Virus record (IMG/VR): IMGVR_UViG_3300048928_000524
Coordinates: 1 to 27,266 of that record
Origin: a virus
DNA length: 27,266 nt
Strand: one strand, 5' to 3'
Shown: positions 292 through 10,415 of the stretch, in pieces
How positions within the stretch are numbered: position 1 is the stretch's first letter
Layout: each line of letters begins with the position of its first letter
Program-made: the position numbers and the translations under genes
The notes under the pieces: generated by a model
The model's input: only the letters and a program-made list of their open reading frames with translations
The model's database searches: none
What the model was told of the DNA's origin: nothing

Positions 292-523
292 TTTATGGTG
301 GGTAAATGTAGAAATGTATTGCACTGCTAATTGGATTTCTAACGACTCCAAAGAGCCTGCCGTTGGAATAACCCCACCCCAGAGGGGAGCGGGCGGCCAC
401 CTTGAAATTGACCTGCAGTGCTATATTCTGAGCCGCAATATCCGGTTGCTTTTGATCGCTCGTAATAGATAGTCTATGTCTGACCTGGATCAAAGCGGGT
501 ACAGAAATTGAGGTGGGGGGGAA

Positions 524-1954
524 ATGTTCCAGTCGATATCAAAAGAAGCTTTCGAAGCTCGCTTTTACGGCCGCACGCCTTTCGTTAGGTTGTTCTCGAC
601 CGAACTAGAGTGGTTCATGGAAGAACGGGGCGAGACGACGATTCTTGCGGTAATGCTCCGATGCGAGATCGACAAAGACTTTAATGCGATTTTGCTAGGC
701 CGTGACCTAGACCGCAGATTCAGAGCTATCAATGTCATTGTCTCGAAGGACTCTCGAGACGAGCTTGTAGAGGCACTAAATGCTTGTGTGGATGATTTAT
801 TCAATGCGCATGTAGAGGGCTGCTTTCCACAGGGCGACGAAACTAGCGCTTTTGCTATCTTCGATCCGCGTGTTCCTGAAAATCGCCGAAATCGATATTA
901 TCGATTATTAGTCGAGGATCCCGTTCATTTTCCGGCTCGGGTCATGATGGAGGAGTTGGCGTATTGGTTCAAGGATCCGGATGGCGTTTTCATTCGCGCA
1001 CTTCAGGGAAATGAGTTTAACTCCAGGCTCTTTGAGCTTTATCTTCATGCTGTCTTCTATGAGCTGGATTTTGAGATTAGCCGTGATCATCCGCAGCCAG
1101 ACTATTGCCTGCAGAAAGGAGCGGACCAAGTTTTCGTAGAAGTGGCAACGATCGCTGAGCAGGAGAACGTAGAGCAGTTAGAAGTCAATGAGGAAACTCT
1201 CCGGGAGATAGAGCGCCACGCTGCAGAGGAAATGCCTTTTAAGTTTCAACGTGCTTTGTTGAACAAGGTTCGGCACAGGCCTGAGCCAAGCAGATTGCAC
1301 TATTGGGAACTTGACCACGTTCGAGGAAACCCATTCGTCATCGCGCTACACGACTATTCGCGCCCAATGTCCATGGCATTCTCCAGTATGGCGTTGCAAG
1401 AATACTTATACGGTTGGCGTGTGACGAGGGAGGGTGTATGTGAGACTTTTGATCGTCACGTTGTGGGCGAGCGCAGTATTCCCGTCAACTTCTTCTCACA
1501 CGATCGCCATACGCACATTGCAGCCGTGATGTTGGCAACTCAGGGAACGATTCCGAAGTTCAATCGGATGGGGCGCCTTGCGGGCCTGCGCAGTCCTAAC
1601 TCCCTGGCCATTGTTACGGGAGCGAGGACGGATGGGCAGGGGGATGTACGGCCTTTTCGGGCCATTGTGGAAGAGCGCAAATACTCGGAACTCTGGCACG
1701 AAGGCATCTACATCTTCCACAACCCTAGGGCGGTGCATCCTTTGGATCCAGAACTCTTCCCGCACGTAATTCACGTGTTCCAAACAGACGACGGAATCGA
1801 ACAGCTTGTGCCAACCAATTTCATCGTTTCAAGCACTACTCAGATGTTGATTTCAGAGCCGCAGGCGATTAATGAAGTGCTCCGGCGCCTTGATGAGGCA
1901 AACGAAGGGCCACAGGCTGCGAATCTTCCCGAGGTCAATGACTTGGGTGGTTAA
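524..1954 (+). CDS. Hypothetical 476-aa protein of the low-GC island, with a possible degenerate PD-(D/E)xK nuclease-like core
   Basis: This is a long ORF in AT-richer DNA with a purine-rich SD (GAGGTGGGGGGG) just upstream of the ATG. The segment FELYLHAVFYELDFEISRDHPQPDYCLQKGADQVFVEVATI (aa 170-210) shows the E...PD...hhhExx pattern of restriction-endonuclease-fold proteins, but it lacks the canonical Lys. I recognise no other family. Confidence 0.8.
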   Translation: MFQSISKEAFEARFYGRTPFVRLFSTELEWFMEERGETTILAVMLRCEIDKDFNAILLGRDLDRRFRAINVIVSKDSRDELVEALNACVDDLFNAHVEGCFPQGDETSAFAIFDPRVPENRRNRYYRLLVEDPVHFPARVMMEELAYWFKDPDGVFIRALQGNEFNSRLFELYLHAVFYELDFEISRDHPQPDYCLQKGADQVFVEVATIAEQENVEQLEVNEETLREIERHAAEEMPFKFQRALLNKVRHRPEPSRLHYWELDHVRGNPFVIALHDYSRPMSMAFSSMALQEYLYGWRVTREGVCETFDRHVVGERSIPVNFFSHDRHTHIAAVMLATQGTIPKFNRMGRLAGLRSPNSLAIVTGARTDGQGDVRPFRAIVEERKYSELWHEGIYIFHNPRAVHPLDPELFPHVIHVFQTDDGIEQLVPTNFIVSSTTQMLISEPQAINEVLRRLDEANEGPQAANLPEVNDLGG

Positions 1955-2163
1955 CGCGATGCGACAACGATACAGGACAGGTTTGAGGATAGGATCGCCT
2001 ACAGAAAAGTAGCGGGGTCGCAATTGAGCGAAGTCAGGCGCTGTTCCGGCCCCTAAAAGAGCACTGCGTCCGCGCAGCACCTTCGACTAGCAGGTCGAGG
2101 ACATGCTCGAACCAAGCGTTTGAGCGGTCGCTGATCATCCGAGTGACTGAAAGCGGTTCTACC

Positions 2164-3075
2164 ATGACATCATCGCTTCAACCTCCTTTTTCGGCTCGAG
2201 CCAGAGGCAAACACCGACAGATCGACGGTGATTTTCCTGCCTCTGCAAGAAGCGGTCTACTTCACCTAATCTCTGATCTCGTCGAGCGTAGGTACGTTAA
2301 AGACTGGACGGTTGTCGCGCGCGAATTGCATCGGATCGGACGGCTTGAGGTGGTCAGCTATGACGCTTCATATGGGACGAGCTTGAAGCAAGCTAAGCTG
2401 AACGTAGAAACAGCCCTCAAAGAGCTTCGTTGGGACAGGGCCTATGATTTCTGTGAGCGCTTGTTTAGCCATCTTCCTCACGAAATCGGCTTCGAGGACA
2501 GTGCAGGTAATTACTGCGTTGATGTGCCGGTAAGTGAAATTCAAGCGTACATCGCCACCGAACTTCAGCGACTTTTTCTAGAAGAAGACCTTGCGTATGA
2601 GTTTTCGGAAGGCGCTGTCCGCCGACGCGGTCGAAAGCACACTGTAGAACTCACAGCAAAGTCGCAAGTTGTACTTGGGGACACGCGGCTCTCAAGCGCG
2701 AGGAGGCACTTCGACAAGGCTCTACAGTTTTTCCGGCATCCTACGCGCCCTGACTTTGAGAATGCTGTTAAGGAGGCTGTCTGTGCAGTAGAGGCTGCCG
2801 GGAAAGTTCTTTTCCCGATGGCAAAAGCAGCGACTTTAGGCGACCTCATAAAGTGGCTTGGTACAACCCCAGAGGTATCCGTGCCGAAGGCGATCTGTCA
2901 GACCTACACAGGAGTGTATGCGTTTCGAAGCGGTGGCGAAGGGGTTGGCCACGGCGGGGCGAACGGGGGAAAGGCCACGCTGGAAGTAACTGAGTACTTG
3001 TTAGCGGTCTGTGCTTCGCAGATCATCTTCTTTGTCGACATCGCCAACTCTATGGAAGTTGACGTTCCGTTTTGA
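2164..3075 (+). CDS. AbiJ-NTD4-like / Abi_C (HEPN)-like abortive-infection-type protein
   Basis: The ORF runs 2143..3075 with a GTG at 2143; I prefer the ATG at 2164 (MTSSLQPPFS...). The N-terminus PFSARARGKHRQIDGDFPASARSGLLHLISDL resembles my recollection of the AbiJ N-terminal domain 4 consensus (FSxRxG...lp..lRn.l). The C-terminus ENAVKEAVCAVEAAGK...VYAFRSGGEGVGHGG resembles the Abi_C/HEPN R-x(n)-H motif (R262, H270). The spacing is 7 residues rather than the usual 4-6. Confidence 0.75.
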   Translation: MTSSLQPPFSARARGKHRQIDGDFPASARSGLLHLISDLVERRYVKDWTVVARELHRIGRLEVVSYDASYGTSLKQAKLNVETALKELRWDRAYDFCERLFSHLPHEIGFEDSAGNYCVDVPVSEIQAYIATELQRLFLEEDLAYEFSEGAVRRRGRKHTVELTAKSQVVLGDTRLSSARRHFDKALQFFRHPTRPDFENAVKEAVCAVEAAGKVLFPMAKAATLGDLIKWLGTTPEVSVPKAICQTYTGVYAFRSGGEGVGHGGANGGKATLEVTEYLLAVCASQIIFFVDIANSMEVDVPF

Positions 3076-3889
3076 GTGGATGTGTCTCATGAGGGAAACC
3101 GTAGACAACCCTCATGAGCGCATTCTCTGCTTCCGCGAGCAGAGCGTCCCCTTCCCGGAGCATGTCGTCGGAAAGCGCGTGGGCGTTCGCGGCAAAGTAG
3201 GTTGCTTCCTGCCCTGCCGGAGGCATCCACGCAGACACCTGAGCACGTACGTTGCGGAATAGCTGAATCGCATTCAGTGTTTCGAGTTTCGCCTGCGGCG
3301 TCGTCCGTCCGGGTTGGCGCACAAGCTCCCAAAGGCAGTTAGCAACGGTCTCAATATGCAGCTGTGTGATGCTGAGCAGAATGGCAGTAGTTTCGGGCGA
3401 CGCGCGGAGATGTGTGCTGAACGCAATGCGCAACATTTGCTCGCAGCGGTGATAGCGCGCAGTGGCATCGTTCCATTTTTCCTGCAGAGTAGCTTGCATA
3501 GCTTGGTCTAAGGTTCCTGGTTGGTGGGGTGGATGATGTGGACCATTGCGCGTGTCGCGGGGCTGCGGCTCAGAGCTTTGCTCTTTCGCTCGCAGCCTAA
3601 TCGCAAGACGCAGCTGCATCGCGGCGTCCGCAGCATCGTTCAATCGATGCCTGTAGAAACCTCCGACGACGAAGGCCGGTTTGTGGGTCGGCGACGTGGG
3701 TTTCAGGACGAGCGCTACGCCGTCGTATGCGTCGCTCTGAACGTGCTCCAGCAACAGAGCCACCGCGCGATCGAGATCGCGCCGATACCCCGCAGCGAGA
3801 CGCGCGTCTTGCGCTTTGCTCTGGCTCGATGGAGGTGTTCCAGGCGGTGTGCGCGTGCCTGGCTGAGGAAACTGAATGAGGATGCCCAT
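3050..3889 (-). CDS. Hypothetical 279-aa protein downstream of the repressor
   Basis: The ORF is 3050..3991. The first 34 codons cover the cI terminator T-run, so I start at ATG 3889..3887 (MGILIQFPQPGT...). The C-terminal two thirds look like a genuine helical protein. I recognise no family and see no obvious SD. Confidence 0.5.
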   Translation of the reverse strand: MGILIQFPQPGTRTPPGTPPSSQSKAQDARLAAGYRRDLDRAVALLLEHVQSDAYDGVALVLKPTSPTHKPAFVVGGFYRHRLNDAADAAMQLRLAIRLRAKEQSSEPQPRDTRNGPHHPPHQPGTLDQAMQATLQEKWNDATARYHRCEQMLRIAFSTHLRASPETTAILLSITQLHIETVANCLWELVRQPGRTTPQAKLETLNAIQLFRNVRAQVSAWMPPAGQEATYFAANAHALSDDMLREGDALLAEAENALMRVVYGFPHETHPLKTERQLP

Positions 3890-3988: not shown

Positions 3989-4013
3989 CAAAAAATCCCG
4001 CCGAAGCGGGATT
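3989..4013 (-). terminator. Intrinsic terminator of the repressor gene
   Basis: The minus strand reads AATCCCGC-TTCG-GCGGGATT followed by TTTTTGTTT, an 8-bp stem with a UUCG loop. It starts 3 nt after the cI stop. Confidence 0.7.
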
Positions 4014-4015
4014 CA

Positions 4016-4504
4016 TTAACTGGCGCGCTTGCGCTGCGCCTTTGCCTTGGGAAGAGGTGGGTAGCCGTAGTCGGAGGGCTCTGCAACTTCTGCTGGTGCT
4101 TCTTCGAAGCGCTTTGCCTTCGGTCCATCTGCACGGGCAATGGGCGTCGCCCCTTTGAGCTGTTTCTTCGCAGCAAGTACCGCTTCAAGTGTCGCAATCG
4201 CGGCTTCGATATCCCGTTCAGACAAGTCATTCAGTGCACTGATTGCCAGTGCGCCGAAGTCGGGCGCTGGTGGCGCCTCGTCTTCTGCATCGAGGGAGAA
4301 AGGCGGCAGGTGGAGCGCTTGCTCGATCTCGCGCGCGACGTCTTCGCCGATGCGCTTGCCACCGGCTTTGCCTTCTTCGTAGAGCATGCGCCCCACGTAT
4401 GACTGGGCCTTGCCGATGGCCTGGGCGAGTTTCACGATCGAGCCCTCGAAGCGAGAGACGCGGATCTGGTCCAGCCGCTGCCGACGTCGTTCGTACTTAT
4501 CCAT
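4016..4504 (-). CDS. CI-type HTH (XRE-family) prophage repressor, 162 aa, with no S24 peptidase domain
   Basis: The N-terminal segment GSIVKLAQAIGKAQSYVGRMLYEEGKAGGKRIGEDVAREIEQALHLPPFSL is a typical cI/XRE helix-turn-helix. The gene is divergent from a Cro-like gene. The C-terminal half is Ala/Pro/Lys-rich and has no Ser/Lys autocleavage module. Confidence 0.8.
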   Translation of the reverse strand: MDKYERRRQRLDQIRVSRFEGSIVKLAQAIGKAQSYVGRMLYEEGKAGGKRIGEDVAREIEQALHLPPFSLDAEDEAPPAPDFGALAISALNDLSERDIEAAIATLEAVLAAKKQLKGATPIARADGPKAKRFEEAPAEVAEPSDYGYPPLPKAKAQRKRAS

Positions 4505-4549
4505 TCTTTACAAATTCCGGCCCTGTTTTTCGCGGAAACGCCCCGCCAA

Positions 4550-4582
4550 GGTATTGAGATAAAAAATACCCGTGGGTACCAT
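4550..4582. promoter_or_regulatory. OR-like operator block with a PR-like promoter
   Basis: GGTATTGAGATAAAAAATACC has 5-bp inverted arms (GGTAT/ATACC). It overlaps the near-palindrome TACCCGTGGGTA. TTGAGA (4554-4559) - 17 nt - TACCAT (4577-4582) reads toward cro. Confidence 0.5.
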
Positions 4583-5849: not shown

Positions 5850-6009
5850 GGTAGTCGGTGTAGGTCTCGATGAAGTCCTTGCAGAATCGGGCTACAGCTT
5901 CGCCCGATTCCTTGCTTGTGCGCAGTTCATTTTGGAATAGCGTGGGCTGGAGTTTGAGGATCTTGTCGAGCAATTCCTCGGCAGCTATGCGTGCGGAATA
6001 AATATCCAT
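5833..6009 (-). CDS. Hypothetical 58-aa helical protein, reversed relative to the early operon
   Basis: The ATG at 6009..6007 lies inside the longer track ORF 5833..6369. The translation MDIYSARIAAEELLDKILKLQPTLFQNELRTSKESGEAVARFCKDFIETYTDYLSKRA looks like a real amphipathic protein. GC is locally lower (31/60 in the line starting at 5881). The upstream 120 codons of the track ORF look like shadow sequence. Confidence 0.4.
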   Translation of the reverse strand: MDIYSARIAAEELLDKILKLQPTLFQNELRTSKESGEAVARFCKDFIETYTDYLSKRA

Positions 6010-6139
6010 GTGCTTCCTGCAAAGAGTTTGAGTGGTCGTCGTCGGGTTCGGAGCCCGACGAAGCAGTGTTGCCGCCAGAGGTTGGGGCGGCAACCTGTAG
6101 GGCAGGGTTGTATCGATTTTTGACAGGGCTGAATCGCGC

Positions 6140-6538
6140 ATGACACAAACGCAGAGCAACACGTCACGCTTTTCACACGGCATGACGTGCTGCAAGGCGG
6201 GGCGTGTTGCTGTGGGCTTGTCGTGTGACCGGCCGGACCAGATGTGTTGTGCGTGGCACCGCATTGCGGGGGCGTTCAAGCCTCGCGGGTTGGCGGTGCT
6301 GTCGAAGTTTGCGGAGCATCTGCTGGATGCTTGCGCGTGGCCGCTGGCTGATGTGTTTTGGCCGTTCAATGCGGCTGGTGAGTCTTCTGCGCTGGCGTTG
6401 GCCTGCGCGTCGCGTTATCGCGCGATTTCAACTGAGGCGGAGCGCCTCGCTTTTCGATCCACTGTTGTTGCGTCGACGTCGCCGGAGTTTGTGGCGGTGT
6501 TTGACGTGCTGTGTAAGGCCGCGCCGCTGCGGCTGTAA
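6140..6538 (+). CDS. Hypothetical early protein (start uncertain)
   Basis: The ORF is in the operon orientation. There is no recognisable family, and Cys-rich N-terminal residues make the start uncertain. Confidence 0.4.
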   Translation: MTQTQSNTSRFSHGMTCCKAGRVAVGLSCDRPDQMCCAWHRIAGAFKPRGLAVLSKFAEHLLDACAWPLADVFWPFNAAGESSALALACASRYRAISTEAERLAFRSTVVASTSPEFVAVFDVLCKAAPLRL

Positions 6539-6548
6539 GGGCGATTCC

Positions 6549-6737
6549 ATGGACATTCCTATCGAGGCCGTTGGCGCTGTTTGGGCCAAGGGCAGGGCGG
6601 CTGCATTGTCTGGCCGTCCGTTGGATGAGGCGAACGAGTATCCGGCTGGCAGCGCGCATCACGCGGCGTGGCTGGCGGGGTATATGGGCTTGGCGCGCAC
6701 GTATGGAGGCGAGGGTGTCGGCGTATCGCATCAATGA
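6549..6737 (+). CDS. Rmf/CrpP-family small protein (62 aa)
   Basis: This is an internal ATG of track ORF 6204..6737. WAKGRAAALSGRPLDEANEYPAGSAHHAAWLAGY follows the Rmf-like pattern G+xAGxxG...(C)PY...s....WLxGW/Y. Confidence 0.5.
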   Translation: MDIPIEAVGAVWAKGRAAALSGRPLDEANEYPAGSAHHAAWLAGYMGLARTYGGEGVGVSHQ

Positions 6738-7746
6738 TCTTGAGTTGAGCGCGCTGTCCGGGGCGGGTGCGGAGATCGCGCATCTGTACCTGGTGGCGCT
6801 GCGCCCGCGTATGGACTTCAGGACGGGCGTGGTGGGGCGCGTGGTGCGGATCTCGTATCAGGCGCTGCGTGAGTGGACGGAGCGCACTGCGCGTCGCGGC
6901 GTGCGCTACCTGGCGCATGACAAATCAAAGCTGCAGCGGATGTTGGCGCAGCTGGAGAAGCTGGGGCTGCTGCGCCGGCTTGGCGGGCAGTACGAGCTTG
7001 TTTTTGCGTGCCCGTTGGCGGATACGGATTCGTGCGTCCAAAAGAAAGCCGGTCGAGGTTCGATACACCCGCAGGATGGCTACGAATTCAATGCTGATGC
7101 GGGTTTCAAGGATGTGCCTGAGTCTGTGGATAACGCGAAAGCCGCCACACATCCGTATTCCGGTAACACCTATAAAACCAACCCCCCTAACCCCCCACGC
7201 CGGGGGCGTGAGAAGAAGGAGATTGAGTCCCCCACGCCTGCGGCGCGGGAGGATCGAAACGGCCCCCAACACCGTCGCACGCGGCGGCACCGGCTCTCAG
7301 AGGAACGTGGTCAGAACACGAGCGTGGTTGGGGATGGGCTTGCAGAGAGTGAGGATGGGCAAAGCGTGGCGTGGCAGGCAGACCTTGCCTGGCCGGTTGA
7401 CCTGAGAGGGCCTGAGCGGGCGCGTGTTGCACGCATTGTGGCTCGGGCACCCGTCGGCATGAGGCAGGTGGTGGTCGACGAATGGCGGGGCCGTATGGCG
7501 GCGGGTGGTGTGGACGATCCGTTTGCGATGTTGGCGTATCACGCGAAGCGGGCGAGCGATCCGGATTGGGTGCCGTCGTATGCGGCGGCGGTGCGGGAGT
7601 CGCGCGAGCGGGCAAGGGCGCTGCGGCGCCAGCAGGAGGAGGCGCTGGCGCGGTTGCAGGCGCAGGCGGAGCAGGCGGTGGCTGGGCTGCCGTGGCATGC
7701 GGGCCGGTTGCGGCACGCGGCAGGCGTTGCGCGAGGTGCGGCATGA
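6703..7746 (+). CDS. Replication initiator-like protein (N-terminal winged helix)
   Basis: I start at ATG 6703, in frame with the track ORF from 6571. LSGAGAEIAHLYLVALRPRMDFRTGVVG...ISYQALREW...KSKLQRMLAQLEKLGLLRR is typical of phage O/replication wHTH proteins. A Pro/Arg-rich linker and a helical C-terminal domain follow. Confidence 0.6.
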   Translation: MEARVSAYRINDLELSALSGAGAEIAHLYLVALRPRMDFRTGVVGRVVRISYQALREWTERTARRGVRYLAHDKSKLQRMLAQLEKLGLLRRLGGQYELVFACPLADTDSCVQKKAGRGSIHPQDGYEFNADAGFKDVPESVDNAKAATHPYSGNTYKTNPPNPPRRGREKKEIESPTPAAREDRNGPQHRRTRRHRLSEERGQNTSVVGDGLAESEDGQSVAWQADLAWPVDLRGPERARVARIVARAPVGMRQVVVDEWRGRMAAGGVDDPFAMLAYHAKRASDPDWVPSYAAAVRESRERARALRRQQEEALARLQAQAEQAVAGLPWHAGRLRHAAGVARGAA

Positions 7747-8042: not shown

Positions 8043-8442
8043 GCCGCGTGAGGTGACGAGGCAATCTGCGTTGGTGACGAGCGAGGATCAGGCGCTCGAT
8101 GATCTGCTGTTGGAGTGGTTCCGCTGGGAGGCGCAGTATTCGGGCGAGAAGTGGTTTTCGAACCGGGATGCGACGTGCGGTGGGTCTGCGAGCTCGCGGC
8201 AGTGGATGTCGACGGATGACATTCACGAGGCGAGCGTGGATGCGTGGCAGATGCAGCAGGTGGCGGCGGCGATGGAGGCGATCTCGGGCGACCATGCGCT
8301 GGCGATTCGGGTGGAGTGTCGGAACAGGCTCGGGCCGGGCGTGTGGCGGAACCCGCGTGCGGGGCTGCGGCAGCCGTTGGCGTATGCGGCGGCGAAGGTG
8401 GCGATCAGGCCGTGGATTGTGAAATTCGGTGTCGAGTATTGA
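8029..8442 (+). CDS. Hypothetical 137-aa protein; possible Q-like late regulator
   Basis: This is an internal ATG of track ORF 7852..8442 and the last gene before a strong terminator. LLLEWFRWEAQYSGEKW...DDIHEASVDAWQMQQVAAAMEAI loosely parallels the LERWGAWA...DDDAM...M layout of 82/21-type Q proteins, which I recall from memory only. Confidence 0.5.
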   Translation: MYCVKPREVTRQSALVTSEDQALDDLLLEWFRWEAQYSGEKWFSNRDATCGGSASSRQWMSTDDIHEASVDAWQMQQVAAAMEAISGDHALAIRVECRNRLGPGVWRNPRAGLRQPLAYAAAKVAIRPWIVKFGVEY

Positions 8443-8504
8443 TGGTGGCGGGGGCGTCGCTTAAAGTTCGGTTCGTGGGGCGACGTGCGCCCATAGAAAA
8501 TGAA

Positions 8505-8540
8505 AGCCCGACCGGATTGCTGTGTCGGGCTTTTTGTTTG
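8505..8540 (+). terminator. Intrinsic terminator at the end of the early operon
   Basis: AGCCCGAC (8505-8512) pairs with GTCGGGCT (8524-8531) across an 11-nt loop, followed by TTTTTGTTTG. An A-run upstream gives partial bidirectional character. Confidence 0.7.
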
Positions 8541-8666
8541 TGCGGTGTTGTCTTGCAGGGGCTGGCCGGGAGCTGTCCGAGTACGGTAAGGAGAGAAAAT
8601 CGAGCAGTGCGCCGATGACCACTCTTCACCTACGGCAAGCCCTCCTGCAAATCGCCAGCAGGGTCA

Positions 8667-9335
8667 TCACTGAACAACGAGCTCGTACTCGATGTCTTGA
8701 ACCATACGACCGTAATCGCTCGAGTTTTGATTGTATCGGCCGCCAAACTTGAGTGTGTAGCGCCCGCGTTGCAGAGGCTTCAGCAGAACCCAGTATCCGT
8801 CAGATGCTGAGGGATAAGCCTTGTACGGGCGCTGTTCTGGCTGAATACGTTCGAAGATGTCGAAGCACTTCTCGCTAGCGGTGCGAAATCTTCTTACGTT
8901 GGAGAGCGACGTTCCGTTCAGCTCCACAAACAGATCTATAGCGGAGTCATTGTTGAGTGCAGCTGCCGCTTTTGCCTTTTCGCAGGTGTAGGTGTCGTTT
9001 CCTCTGGCGGGGTAGTACACCATATTGACCACCGGAAAGAACAATGGTTTGCCAGCGGGTACGACACACGACCTCCGGATCTTTGAAGATCCAAAGCCGC
9101 CTGCCAGGAACCAGACTGCACCTTGTTGGCCAGCTCCACAATTCGCCCCCGTCAAATCGCGCAGGGGATTAACTTCGGAAGGGATCGACATTGCCCACTG
9201 CCACCACTCCGTCGACAACTGTGCGACAGATGCTCCCTTGACTGAACTGCCGGGCTGAAACGCAAAGTCAGCGGCGAGTGCCGGGATCGGCAAGGCAAGC
9301 GCGGCAGCCACTGACACGACGATATTGCGAAACAT
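8667..9335 (-). CDS. Secreted protein of unknown function (moron)
   Basis: I start at the second ATG (9335), which has GGAGA 5 nt upstream. The product begins MFRNIVVSVAAALALPIPALA/ADFAF, a classic Sec signal peptide with an AxA site. GC is low (28/60 in the line starting at 8881). The orientation is opposite to all flanking phage genes. Confidence 0.8.
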   Translation of the reverse strand: MFRNIVVSVAAALALPIPALAADFAFQPGSSVKGASVAQLSTEWWQWAMSIPSEVNPLRDLTGANCGAGQQGAVWFLAGGFGSSKIRRSCVVPAGKPLFFPVVNMVYYPARGNDTYTCEKAKAAAALNNDSAIDLFVELNGTSLSNVRRFRTASEKCFDIFERIQPEQRPYKAYPSASDGYWVLLKPLQRGRYTLKFGGRYNQNSSDYGRMVQDIEYELVVQ

Positions 9336-9733
9336 TACTGTCTCCATTTTTGCAACGACATTAACGTGCAGAAATACTCAGGGAAATAGATCGAGAGGCG
9401 GTGCGAGATTATCCGGGTGTGTGTTTGTGGTTGACTGGCGTAGATGCGCAGTGTCGCGAGGGTGCAACAATGCATTGCGCACCGCTTGCGCACACCTGTT
9501 GTTCTCGCAGTGGATCCCAACTAACCGAACGAGAGGTGACCGGATAGCGTGGGGTGCCTCCTGTTGACCTATCGCTCCGCGAGAATCGGTGACGAACATC
9601 TCATCTGTCTGATGGAGCCCGGCGTCGGCGCGCCTTGCCACGGCCGGGGCGAAAGCCGGGGGCCCCTGGGCCCAAGGGCTACTGCGGGGGCGCTCACCCG
9701 CGACTCTTCGTTAGCGGCCAGTTTTCCAGCTTA

Positions 9734-9780
9734 GTGAAATTCACCTCCGATGAGGTGAAACGGTGAAATCATGAGTGAAA
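9734..9780. repeat. Cluster of GTGAA(A) motifs around the terS start (candidate cosB/terminase-binding sites)
   Basis: GTGAAATTCAC (9734-9744) has inverted arms GTGAA/TTCAC. GGTGAAA occurs at 9754-9760 and 9762-9768, and GTGAAA at 9775-9780. Confidence 0.4.
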
Positions 9781-10415
9781 CGATCCTTCTGACGCGCTCG
9801 GCGTTTGCGGCGCGCCAGAACTGGTCGCCCAGCTATGTCACCAAGCTCGGCAAGGAAGGGAAGCTGGTCACCACGCCGGACGGCAAGCTGGTCGACGTCG
9901 ATGCCACGCTCGCGAAGATCAAACGCGGTGCCGACCCCGCCAAAGAAGCCGTCCGCGCCCGCCACGAGGCTGCACGCATCGACCGCGATGTCTACAGCGC
10001 AAGAGACACAACGCCCGACGCCGACCCATCCCTCGGCCACGACTTCCAAGCCGCCCGCGCCGAACGCGAGTACTACCAGGCACAGCTAGCCCGCACCGAA
10101 TACCAGTGGGTCTCTGGCCTGCTGGTCAGCCGCATAGCCGTAGAAGACGCCGCCGAAAAGATGGGCGCCAACCTGCGCGACCGCATCATGGGCCTGCCGC
10201 GCCAGATCGCGCCCGAGCTGGCCTCGATGACCGATCCATGGGCCGTCGAGCGCCATCTCGAAACCGCACTGCGCAAGGTGCTCGACGACATGATCGTCCA
10301 CGGCGCCGCAGTGCTTTCCGAATCCATCAACGATCCCGACCGCGGCAAGTTGGCCGACCTGTCACGCGCGGGGAAAGAGAGGTACGGCTCCATGGAGCCC
10401 ATCGACACATCGTGA
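9771..10415 (+). CDS. Terminase small subunit, lambda Nu1-like
   Basis: The N-terminal HTH is LTRSAFAARQNWSPSYVTKLGKEGKLV. The middle region AEREYYQAQLARTEYQWVSGLLVSRIAVEDAAEKMGANLRDRIMGLPRQIAPEL parallels Nu1 YERHRLTRAQADAQEL...VLSRIAGEIASILDGLPLSVQRRFPEL. The gene lies immediately upstream of, and overlaps, TerL. Confidence 0.8.
   Translation: MSETILLTRSAFAARQNWSPSYVTKLGKEGKLVTTPDGKLVDVDATLAKIKRGADPAKEAVRARHEAARIDRDVYSARDTTPDADPSLGHDFQAARAEREYYQAQLARTEYQWVSGLLVSRIAVEDAAEKMGANLRDRIMGLPRQIAPELASMTDPWAVERHLETALRKVLDDMIVHGAAVLSESINDPDRGKLADLSRAGKERYGSMEPIDTS

Follow-up and report, generated by a model that had tools for sequence, protein, structure and literature searches.

Introduction

Two described groups of anti-phage proteins bear on the locus analyzed here, a two-gene island of low guanine plus cytosine (GC) content in a viral DNA sequence of 27,266 nucleotides (nt) (IMG/VR record IMGVR_UViG_3300048928_000524, positions 1 to 27,266; the whole of this stretch is referred to below as the window). 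The first is PD-T7-1, which was recovered from Escherichia coli ECOR46 as a single 1350-nt open reading frame (ORF) that protects E. coli when cloned with its native promoter (Vassallo et al. 2022; PMC9519451). It was labelled 'Nuclease', and its protection was stronger against T-even phages than against T7 (PMC9519451). A later study found PD-T7-1 to be active against a Teseptimavirus, and phage protection by the E. coli homologue is documented in two reports (PMC9519451, PMC12409345). The second group is formed by AbiJ proteins. An architecture in which an AbiJ-NTD4 domain is joined to an AbiJ HEPN domain was described in 2013, with the proposal that a suicidal RNase is kept under restraint by the N-domain, itself the sensor of a phage component (Anantharaman et al. 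2013; PMC3710099). Lactococcal AbiJ has no known mechanism, and escape mutants map to single-strand annealing proteins (PMC13064643).

The island carries gene 1 (positions 524–1954, + strand), which encodes 476 amino acids (aa), and gene 2, which follows on the same strand and ends at position 3075. An original prediction, made by inspection of the window, had regarded the two genes as an undescribed anti-phage system composed of a nuclease-like protein and a HEPN-like partner. This did not hold: gene 1 is a diverged member of the PD-T7-1 family, and it stands beside a member of the AbiJ-NTD4/PDC-S32 family. We consider it likely that the island consists of two independent single-gene anti-phage cassettes that adjoin each other within a variable defence hotspot carried by a temperate Ralstonia phage.

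Gene 1 matches the PD-T7-1 family from end to end

Comparison with the PADLOC models assigned gene 1 to PD-T7-1 (PDLC04073) with E = 8.1e-142, residues 3–443 being aligned to positions 2–448 of a profile of 452. A protein for which the original prediction had seen no recognisable family is thus matched over almost all of its length. A second PADLOC model, PD-T7-5, aligned to residues 112–437 (E = 1.6e-47), and phrog_8571 matched at E = 1.4e-87. Pfam and NCBIfam searches with gene 1 gave nothing, PADLOC and PHROGs being the only collections that recognise it. Since the PD-T7-5 match is confined to residues 112–437, the N-terminal ∼110 aa are specific to PD-T7-1-type proteins. Gene 1 is ∼51% identical over 93% of its length to proteins of Yersinia P2-like, Morganella and E. 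coli lambdoid phages, and 50–52% identical over 92–93% of its length to 449-aa proteins of E. coli, Klebsiella, Enterobacter and their phages; identity to PD-T7-1 was measured against this enterobacterial 449-aa group, which includes the tested gene, and not against RCQ85672.1 itself. Judged by its sequence, gene 1 is a full-length PD-T7-1 family member with a predicted nuclease.

The original prediction had picked out by eye E171, P192, D193 and the stretch V205-E206-V207-A208, read as a PD-(D/E)xK-like motif from which the Lys is missing. All of these residues are present as described, and the motif is retained in an alignment of 35 homologues that are 33–78% identical: E171, P192, D193 and E206 are invariant, as is K248, and D193 and E206 are 13 residues apart. 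The predicted PD-(D/E)xK-like core spans residues 165–250 (positions 1016–1273, + strand). In an AlphaFold (AF2) model of gene 1, with a predicted local distance difference test (pLDDT) score of 89 and a predicted template modelling score of 0.87, E171 sits in a helix, D193 opens a strand, E206 is found inside the strand after that and K248 belongs to the helix that comes next; the order of elements in the core is alpha-beta-beta-beta-alpha, as expected for a PD-(D/E)xK core. The segment is the same one to which a published HHpred analysis of the E. coli PD-T7-1 protein assigned a weak Hjc/PD-(D/E)xK match (80%, residues 177–219; segment given as 171–219). With the gene 1 model, Foldseek matched Hjc (4tkd) weakly and locally, over 46 columns (probability 0.63), and a hidden Markov model (HMM) search of PDB sequences with gene 1 gave chance matches only.

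Outside the core, residues 1–110 form the N-terminal domain and residues 270–443 the C-terminal beta-rich domain. The latter carries two invariant motifs, PKFNRMG (344–350) and FHNP (398–401), and has no match to a known fold.

Gene 2 is assigned to an AbiJ-like family with a conserved R-x7-H dyad

Both ORFs of the original prediction were confirmed, gene 2 as 310 aa from a GTG at 2143 (2143–3075, + strand). However, nearly all of the 120 best homologues are 302–303 aa long and begin with MT(S/T)S, so that the most likely start is the ATG at 2164, which gives a protein of 303 aa (2164–3075, + strand). Gene 2 matched the PADLOC candidate PDC-S32 with E = 2e-25 (residues 82–299 on positions 84–279 of a profile of 285), and a second PDC-S32 model matched at 1.6e-18. 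PADLOC thus names gene 1 as a published system and gene 2 as a catalogued candidate, and the island is not the undescribed system that had been proposed. The PADLOC AbiJ model, which is of the lactococcal type, did not match gene 2; at E ≤ 1 the PDC-S32 models were the only ones that did.

The AbiJ_NTD4-like N-terminus of the original prediction was borne out. The Pfam AbiJ_NTD4 model matched gene 2 with E = 2e-7 and 32.1 bits, just below its cut-off of 34. A profile search of 1.84 billion representatives yielded 2,866 relatives of gene 2; among a sample of 37 full-length relatives, 20–45% identical to the window protein, all 37 matched AbiJ_NTD4 (best 2e-18) and 18 matched Abi_C (best 1.7e-5). 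The AbiJ_NTD4 domain covers residues 9–164 (positions 2188–2655, + strand) and is presumed to be a sensor or regulatory domain. In the structural model (pLDDT 78 overall), it forms an alpha+beta domain with a pLDDT of about 90 over residues 30–150.

Residues 174–296 (positions 2683–3051, + strand) form an all-alpha C-terminal domain, a presumed HEPN RNase, which contains a helix with N200-x2-K203-E204...E210 and an R255-x7-H263 dyad (codons at 2926–2928 and 2950–2952). These are the R262 and H270 of the original prediction, which used the 310-aa numbering. Its view of the C-terminus as HEPN-like agrees with the conservation of the dyad across the family, in which H263 is found in 37/37 and R255 in 36/37 members; the 7-residue spacing, described as unusual in the original prediction, is constant throughout the clade (37/37). 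The loop that carries the dyad is modelled between the last two helices (242–255 and 273–296). In the search for HEPN evidence, HMM searches of PDB sequences (A2 and A3) found nothing relevant. By these family matches, gene 2 is placed in the AbiJ_NTD4 plus Abi_C/HEPN family and in PDC-S32, its link to Abi_C having arisen through more distant relatives only.

The immunity region of a Ralstonia phage contains a defence hotspot that holds the island

A 42-kb JGI contig contains the same locus at 99.8–100% identity, the whole left end included. Its order is host pheS-pheT-ihfA-merR, integrase, small early-left genes, gene 1, gene 2, gene 3 and a cI-like repressor gene, followed by a cro-like gene, cII (CP76 family), terminase gpA and a lambda-type portal. 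Because the host pheT is 97–98% identical to that of Ralstonia (pickettii/insidiosa group), the element is an integrated Ralstonia prophage; its type is that of a Ralstonia phage with lambda-like head genes and a contractile tail. In contig L016 (1–5752), the prophage is inserted directly downstream of the host pheS-pheT-ihfA-merR genes. A tRNA search with ARAGORN found none in the window or in L016, so that a tRNA gene does not serve as the attachment site, or at least not on this side. In L016 and L014, the other two contigs with this phage, gene 1 differs by one residue (L56V; 99.79% identity), genes 2, 3 and cI are 100% identical to those of the window and cro is only 94% identical, pointing to a recent recombination event on the right-hand side of cI.

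A 32-nt inverted repeat has its arms at 262–293 and 4548–4579, which are 78% complementary and contain the palindrome TACCCATGGGTA, in each arm of the form TACCC(A/G)TGGGTA. The left arm marks the left edge of the conserved backbone beside the island and would give a leftward promoter toward small ORFs at 230–90. The right arm overlaps a promoter-like TTGAGA-17-TACCAT before the cro-like gene. The arms look like OL- and OR-type operators that bracket the immunity region; on this reading, genes 1 to 3 and cI lie inside that region, in support of the placement given in the original prediction.

To the right, the island is bordered by gene 3 (3050–3889, − strand, ∼279 aa), which runs towards gene 2 and extends over the final 26 nt of that gene. 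Searches of Pfam, PHROGs, NCBIfam and PADLOC found no family for gene 3. The gene probably starts near 3889, as in the JGI call of 279 aa, because the listed TTG start at 3991 overlaps an intrinsic terminator (3993–4014, − strand; a 9-bp stem with 5 GC pairs, a TTCG loop and then a T-run) directly after the cI-like gene. Gene 3 was considered as cargo and rejected, since every sister phage retains it (67–82% identity) whatever the cargo; it is a conserved backbone gene. The cI-like gene itself (4016–4504, − strand) matches PHROG transcriptional regulator and repressor families, and genes 1 and 2 are, as had been noted, opposite to it in strand.

Nucleotide homology to sister phages ends at ∼292–302 and restarts at ∼3110–3160, so that the island extends from ∼300 to ∼3110–3160; combined with GC content, these breakpoints place the low-GC cargo at 303–3110. 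The GC content is 0.509 in gene 1, 0.530 in gene 2 and 0.522 across 524–3075, compared with a background of 0.650 ± 0.017 in windows of equal size across 5600–27,266 (z = −7.6), the lowest of which has 0.606. The sharp drop in GC that the original prediction had linked to horizontally acquired, defence-type cargo is therefore upheld, and its four hand counts of 30, 25, 31 and 43 GC per 60 bases proved exact upon recomputation.

The sister phages were examined in ten viral contigs whose cII is 97–98% identical to that of the window. Most of the contigs that cover the region keep cI at 91–100% identity, whereas in L038, L039 and L042 the match is limited to the last ∼35 residues of cI, and cro is diverged. 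Between the same flanks, the sister phages (L034–L043) have a slot of 3.2–6.2 kb that is low in GC and holds different cargo by phage. In L037, the slot contains a type I-B retron (reverse transcriptase, 4e-127; ATPase-Toprim, 2e-177). In L039, IetA and IetS (9e-148 and 0) are found with an Aga_REase-like gene, and in L034, PifA (2.5e-82) is found with an AriA-like ATPase. The slot of L042 (3005–7998) carries a RelA/SpoT-domain protein (PADLOC PDC-S33; Pfam RelA_SpoT, 1.9e-19), then a 1251-aa protein with no family match. L035 (414–2259) and L043 (2145–3990) share three genes on one strand. Their products are a protein of 336 aa that weakly matches HATPase_c_2, a DUF4325 (STAS-like) protein of 109 aa and a membrane protein of 170 aa. 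None of the three is recognised by PADLOC v2, and by its position the trio is a candidate defence system. In total, the six sister phages have five distinct cargo sets, four of which include PADLOC-recognised systems.

We conclude that the slot bounded by the left operator and by gene 3/cI is a prophage defence hotspot, in keeping with the expectation of the original prediction that prophage immunity regions harbor defence cargo. Since the stacking of two unrelated systems is common in the slot, the adjacency of genes 1 and 2 is explained without a functional link. In the papers searched, no description of this Ralstonia phage family and its slot was found.

In the loci scanned, genes 1 and 2 occur together only in this phage

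Co-occurrence was assessed by running profile HMMs of both families over the six-frame ORFs of 78 loci. A gene 1 relative was present in 71 loci and a gene 2 relative in 9, and both were present only in the same IMG/VR contig, that of this phage; when independent loci are counted, the figures are about 69 and 6, with both again only in this phage. The recurrence as neighbours that a two-gene system would entail was thus not observed. A tblastn search of 50,697 phage records detected gene 1 relatives in 16 and a gene 2 relative in none, the 16 included. Alignment-based scans of viral contigs were far more productive than single-protein locus scans, of which the one of genome contigs with gene 2 alone gave 2 loci.

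The relatives of gene 1 have no conserved partner, their neighbours differing in every context. Those in Yersinia P2-like, Morganella and E. coli lambdoid phages are morons that stand by themselves in opposite orientation, and in Burkholderia seminalis and in a Paraburkholderia defence island the neighbours are others again, those in the Paraburkholderia island being Shedu-like SduA_C and PRTase-CE. The closest relatives of gene 2 adjoin either an OLD-like ATPase and a HEPN_Swt1 protein or, at a prophage end, toxin and immunity genes of a type VI secretion system. An all-against-all BLAST of the neighbours of gene 2 relatives found none that is shared, and on this ground the ∼350-aa upstream neighbours in L008 and L010 were rejected as a conserved partner. 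Apart from this phage, a gene 2 relative was present among the viral contigs only in L120 (61% identity), where the gene lies in a low-GC patch, ∼2.6 kb from a small helix-turn-helix repressor-like gene (6001–6906 and 9532–9957); this may be another immunity-region placement.

Upstream sequences and a second low-GC patch

The site TTGAAA-16-TATTCT proposed as a promoter of the island is present upstream of gene 1 (402–429, + strand), but its support is at chance level, since it matches the consensus at 9 of 12 positions and two such sites were found where 2.2 are expected. A 10-mer, GTGCTATATT, at 417–426 is common to the window and to the region upstream of the B. seminalis gene 1 homologue, at a similar distance to the ATG. 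The two upstream regions are otherwise diverged and share this 10-mer only; within it, a conserved extended −10-like sequence, TGCTATATT, at 418–426 overlaps the promoter-like site.

As had been reported, the two genes are separated by 188 nt if gene 2 is taken to start at the GTG and by 209 nt if it starts at the ATG. In the 209-nt spacer (1955–2163, + strand), neither a promoter nor a terminator was called, and comparison with the DNA upstream of gene 2 homologues revealed no conservation, nor a conserved or convincing promoter for gene 2.

Elsewhere in the window is a second low-GC patch (8400–9600, GC 0.52–0.57), with the early genes on one side and the terminase on the other. It holds an ORF of 226 aa (8667–9347, − strand) with an N-terminal signal peptide and no match in Pfam or PADLOC, which looks like another moron and possibly encodes a secreted lysogenic-conversion factor.

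Discussion

We consider it likely that genes 1 and 2 each act alone and that their adjacency reflects cargo stacking in a hotspot rather than a functional pair. The analysis establishes the families to which they belong, the conservation of their motifs, the lack of co-occurrence and the hotspot; for enzymatic activities, triggers and activity in Ralstonia, we infer the following. In gene 1, a PD-(D/E)xK-like centre formed by E171, D193 and E206 would cut invading phage DNA; its catalytic Lys, which is not at the usual E-x-K position, may come from elsewhere, for example K198 or K248, and the N-terminal domain (1–110) and the C-terminal beta-rich domain could provide target recognition or control. 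In gene 2, following the model of Anantharaman et al. (2013), the AbiJ_NTD4 domain would sense a phage component and restrain the C-terminal HEPN-like RNase until, on infection, the R255/H263 site cleaves RNA and the infection is aborted.

Several observations weigh against this picture and are considered here with the alternatives on which they bear. As regards gene 1, reviews list PD-T7-1 as a single-gene PD-(D/E)xK-type system without known mechanism. In the 35 homologues, the residue two positions after E206 is never Lys, the E-x-K lysine being missing family-wide. Although Foldseek gave the local Hjc match, it returned no significant global match for the gene 1 model in PDB or BFVD, so that the nuclease assignment rests on a short motif and the nuclease fold of the original prediction has a weak local counterpart. 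It could be, then, that gene 1 is not a nuclease at all, and that its E/D/E residues bind a metal or another ligand for a different activity, with defence exerted via the beta-rich domain that bears PKFNRMG and FHNP. The position vacated by Lys, the failure to match any nuclease structure significantly and the many invariant residues beyond the putative core (K345–G350, H399–N400 and others) are all compatible with this idea. However, motif spacing and secondary-structure order fit a PD-(D/E)xK core, Hjc was matched weakly but independently by HHpred and by Foldseek, and relocated or replaced lysines are well known in the PD-(D/E)xK superfamily. We therefore regard a nuclease as plausible and a different activity as unlikely.

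As regards gene 2, the R-H spacing of 7 lies outside the canonical Rx4–6H range by one residue, and the loop that carries the dyad is modelled at low confidence. Pfam gave no direct Abi_C or HEPN match with the whole protein or with its C-terminal half alone, and Foldseek against PDB gave weak matches to the HEPN toxins HepT, SO_3166, ST0689 and AbiV, all with E > 1. No paper mentioning PDC-S32 was found in the literature searched, and it stands as a computational candidate. The candidate status of PDC-S32 and the missing direct HEPN match, together with the lack of a convincing promoter for gene 2, raise the possibility that gene 1, gene 2 or both have no active part in defence in this host, being decaying or repurposed cargo, or that gene 2 has a non-defence role. 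To this we give a slim chance, since both ORFs are intact and of full length relative to their families, all family-invariant residues are kept in both, a second contig carries the same pair at 99.8–100% identity, the slot holds recognised defence systems in sister phages and the relatives of gene 2 reside in defence or conflict neighbourhoods.

A further point against independence is that genes 1 and 2 are co-directional across the 209-nt gap with no terminator called between them, which makes co-transcription, and hence some functional interplay in this phage, possible. That they form one two-gene system, in which a nuclease-like partner and a HEPN effector each need the other, is nonetheless highly improbable: the arrangement of the genes within a single low-GC island and the precedent of PD-lambda-3, a published three-gene system that combines a PD-(D/E)xK protein with an AbiJ_NTD3-HEPN protein, would suit it, but among the 78 loci the genes are together only in this phage, PD-T7-1 suffices as one gene in E. 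coli, relatives of gene 2 stand alone among unrelated neighbours and are filed by PADLOC as a single-gene candidate, the GC contents of the two genes differ slightly, and sister phages likewise stack unrelated systems in the slot (AriA-like ATPase with PifA; IetAS with an Aga_REase-like gene).

With two independent cassettes as the preferred reading, what appeared to be a novel two-gene system is corrected to a diverged copy of a published single-gene system beside a catalogued single-gene candidate. This extends the range of PD-T7-1 to Ralstonia phages, and the invariant residues of gene 1 (E171, D193, E206, K248, PKFNRMG and FHNP, at 33–78% identity) provide a mutagenesis map for the family. 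The immunity region of a Ralstonia phage family is moreover shown to contain a defence hotspot, whose unrecognised cargo forms a short list of candidate new systems. Ralstonia includes plant pathogens that are targeted by phage biocontrol efforts, and for this reason the defence content borne by prophages matters for the choice of phages. The remaining interest lies in the AbiJ-like candidate clade, in the mechanism of PD-T7-1 and in the unrecognised cargo of the sister phages. A broader view, held tentatively and at somewhat less than even confidence, is that the slot is an undescribed hotspot, that the gene 2 clade (R-x7-H, PDC-S32) is a real abortive-infection RNase and that the PADLOC-negative sister cargo includes new systems, the named candidates being the HATPase-like/DUF4325/membrane-protein trio of L035 and L043 and the 1251-aa protein beside the RelA/SpoT-like gene of L042. 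A less likely variant is that the PD-T7-1 and AbiJ-like genes cooperate in this phage as a layered DNA- and RNA-targeting defence.

Comparison with known systems

Gene 1 resembles PD-T7-1 in its single-gene, moron-like organisation, often in prophages, and in the conserved E...PD...E motif at the place where HHpred puts the weak Hjc match. It differs in that it comes from the Betaproteobacteria (a Ralstonia phage) and diverges from the tested protein by about 50%, in its acidic C-terminal tail of 25–30 aa and in its placement in an immunity region instead of P2 hotspots. PD-T7-5 (Vassallo et al. 2022) is similar to gene 1 in the core and the C-terminal region but is without the ∼110-aa N-terminal domain present in gene 1 and PD-T7-1. 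Gene 2 shares with the AbiJ-NTD4 family (Pfam PF18863 and PF14355) an alpha+beta NTD4 domain with, after it, an all-alpha domain in which an R...H dyad is conserved, and the occurrence as a stand-alone gene in defence or mobile contexts. It departs from the AbiJ family in having no PADLOC AbiJ match, in lying just below the Pfam NTD4 cut-off and in having no Abi_C match when searched alone, and from the HEPN canon in an R-H spacing of 7 instead of 4–6.

The nearest published precedent for the proposed pairing is PD-lambda-3 (Vassallo et al. 2022), in which a PD-(D/E)xK-like protein occurs with an AbiJ_NTD3-Ymh (HEPN) protein. PD-lambda-3 is, however, a conserved three-gene operon that includes a beta-propeller protein, whereas genes 1 and 2 do not co-occur elsewhere; moreover, its component families are not PD-T7-1, and NTD3/Ymh takes the place of NTD4/Abi_C. 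As for the slot, it is not a cI-rex type operon, since cargo and cI are transcribed in opposite directions and cI is followed by a terminator, in which it differs from lambda rexAB. It does lie, as rexAB does, between the left operator and cI, and like lambda rexAB and the P2 hotspots (Rousset et al. 2022; Vassallo et al. 2022) it is a fixed slot with conserved flanks and interchangeable low-GC defence cargo.

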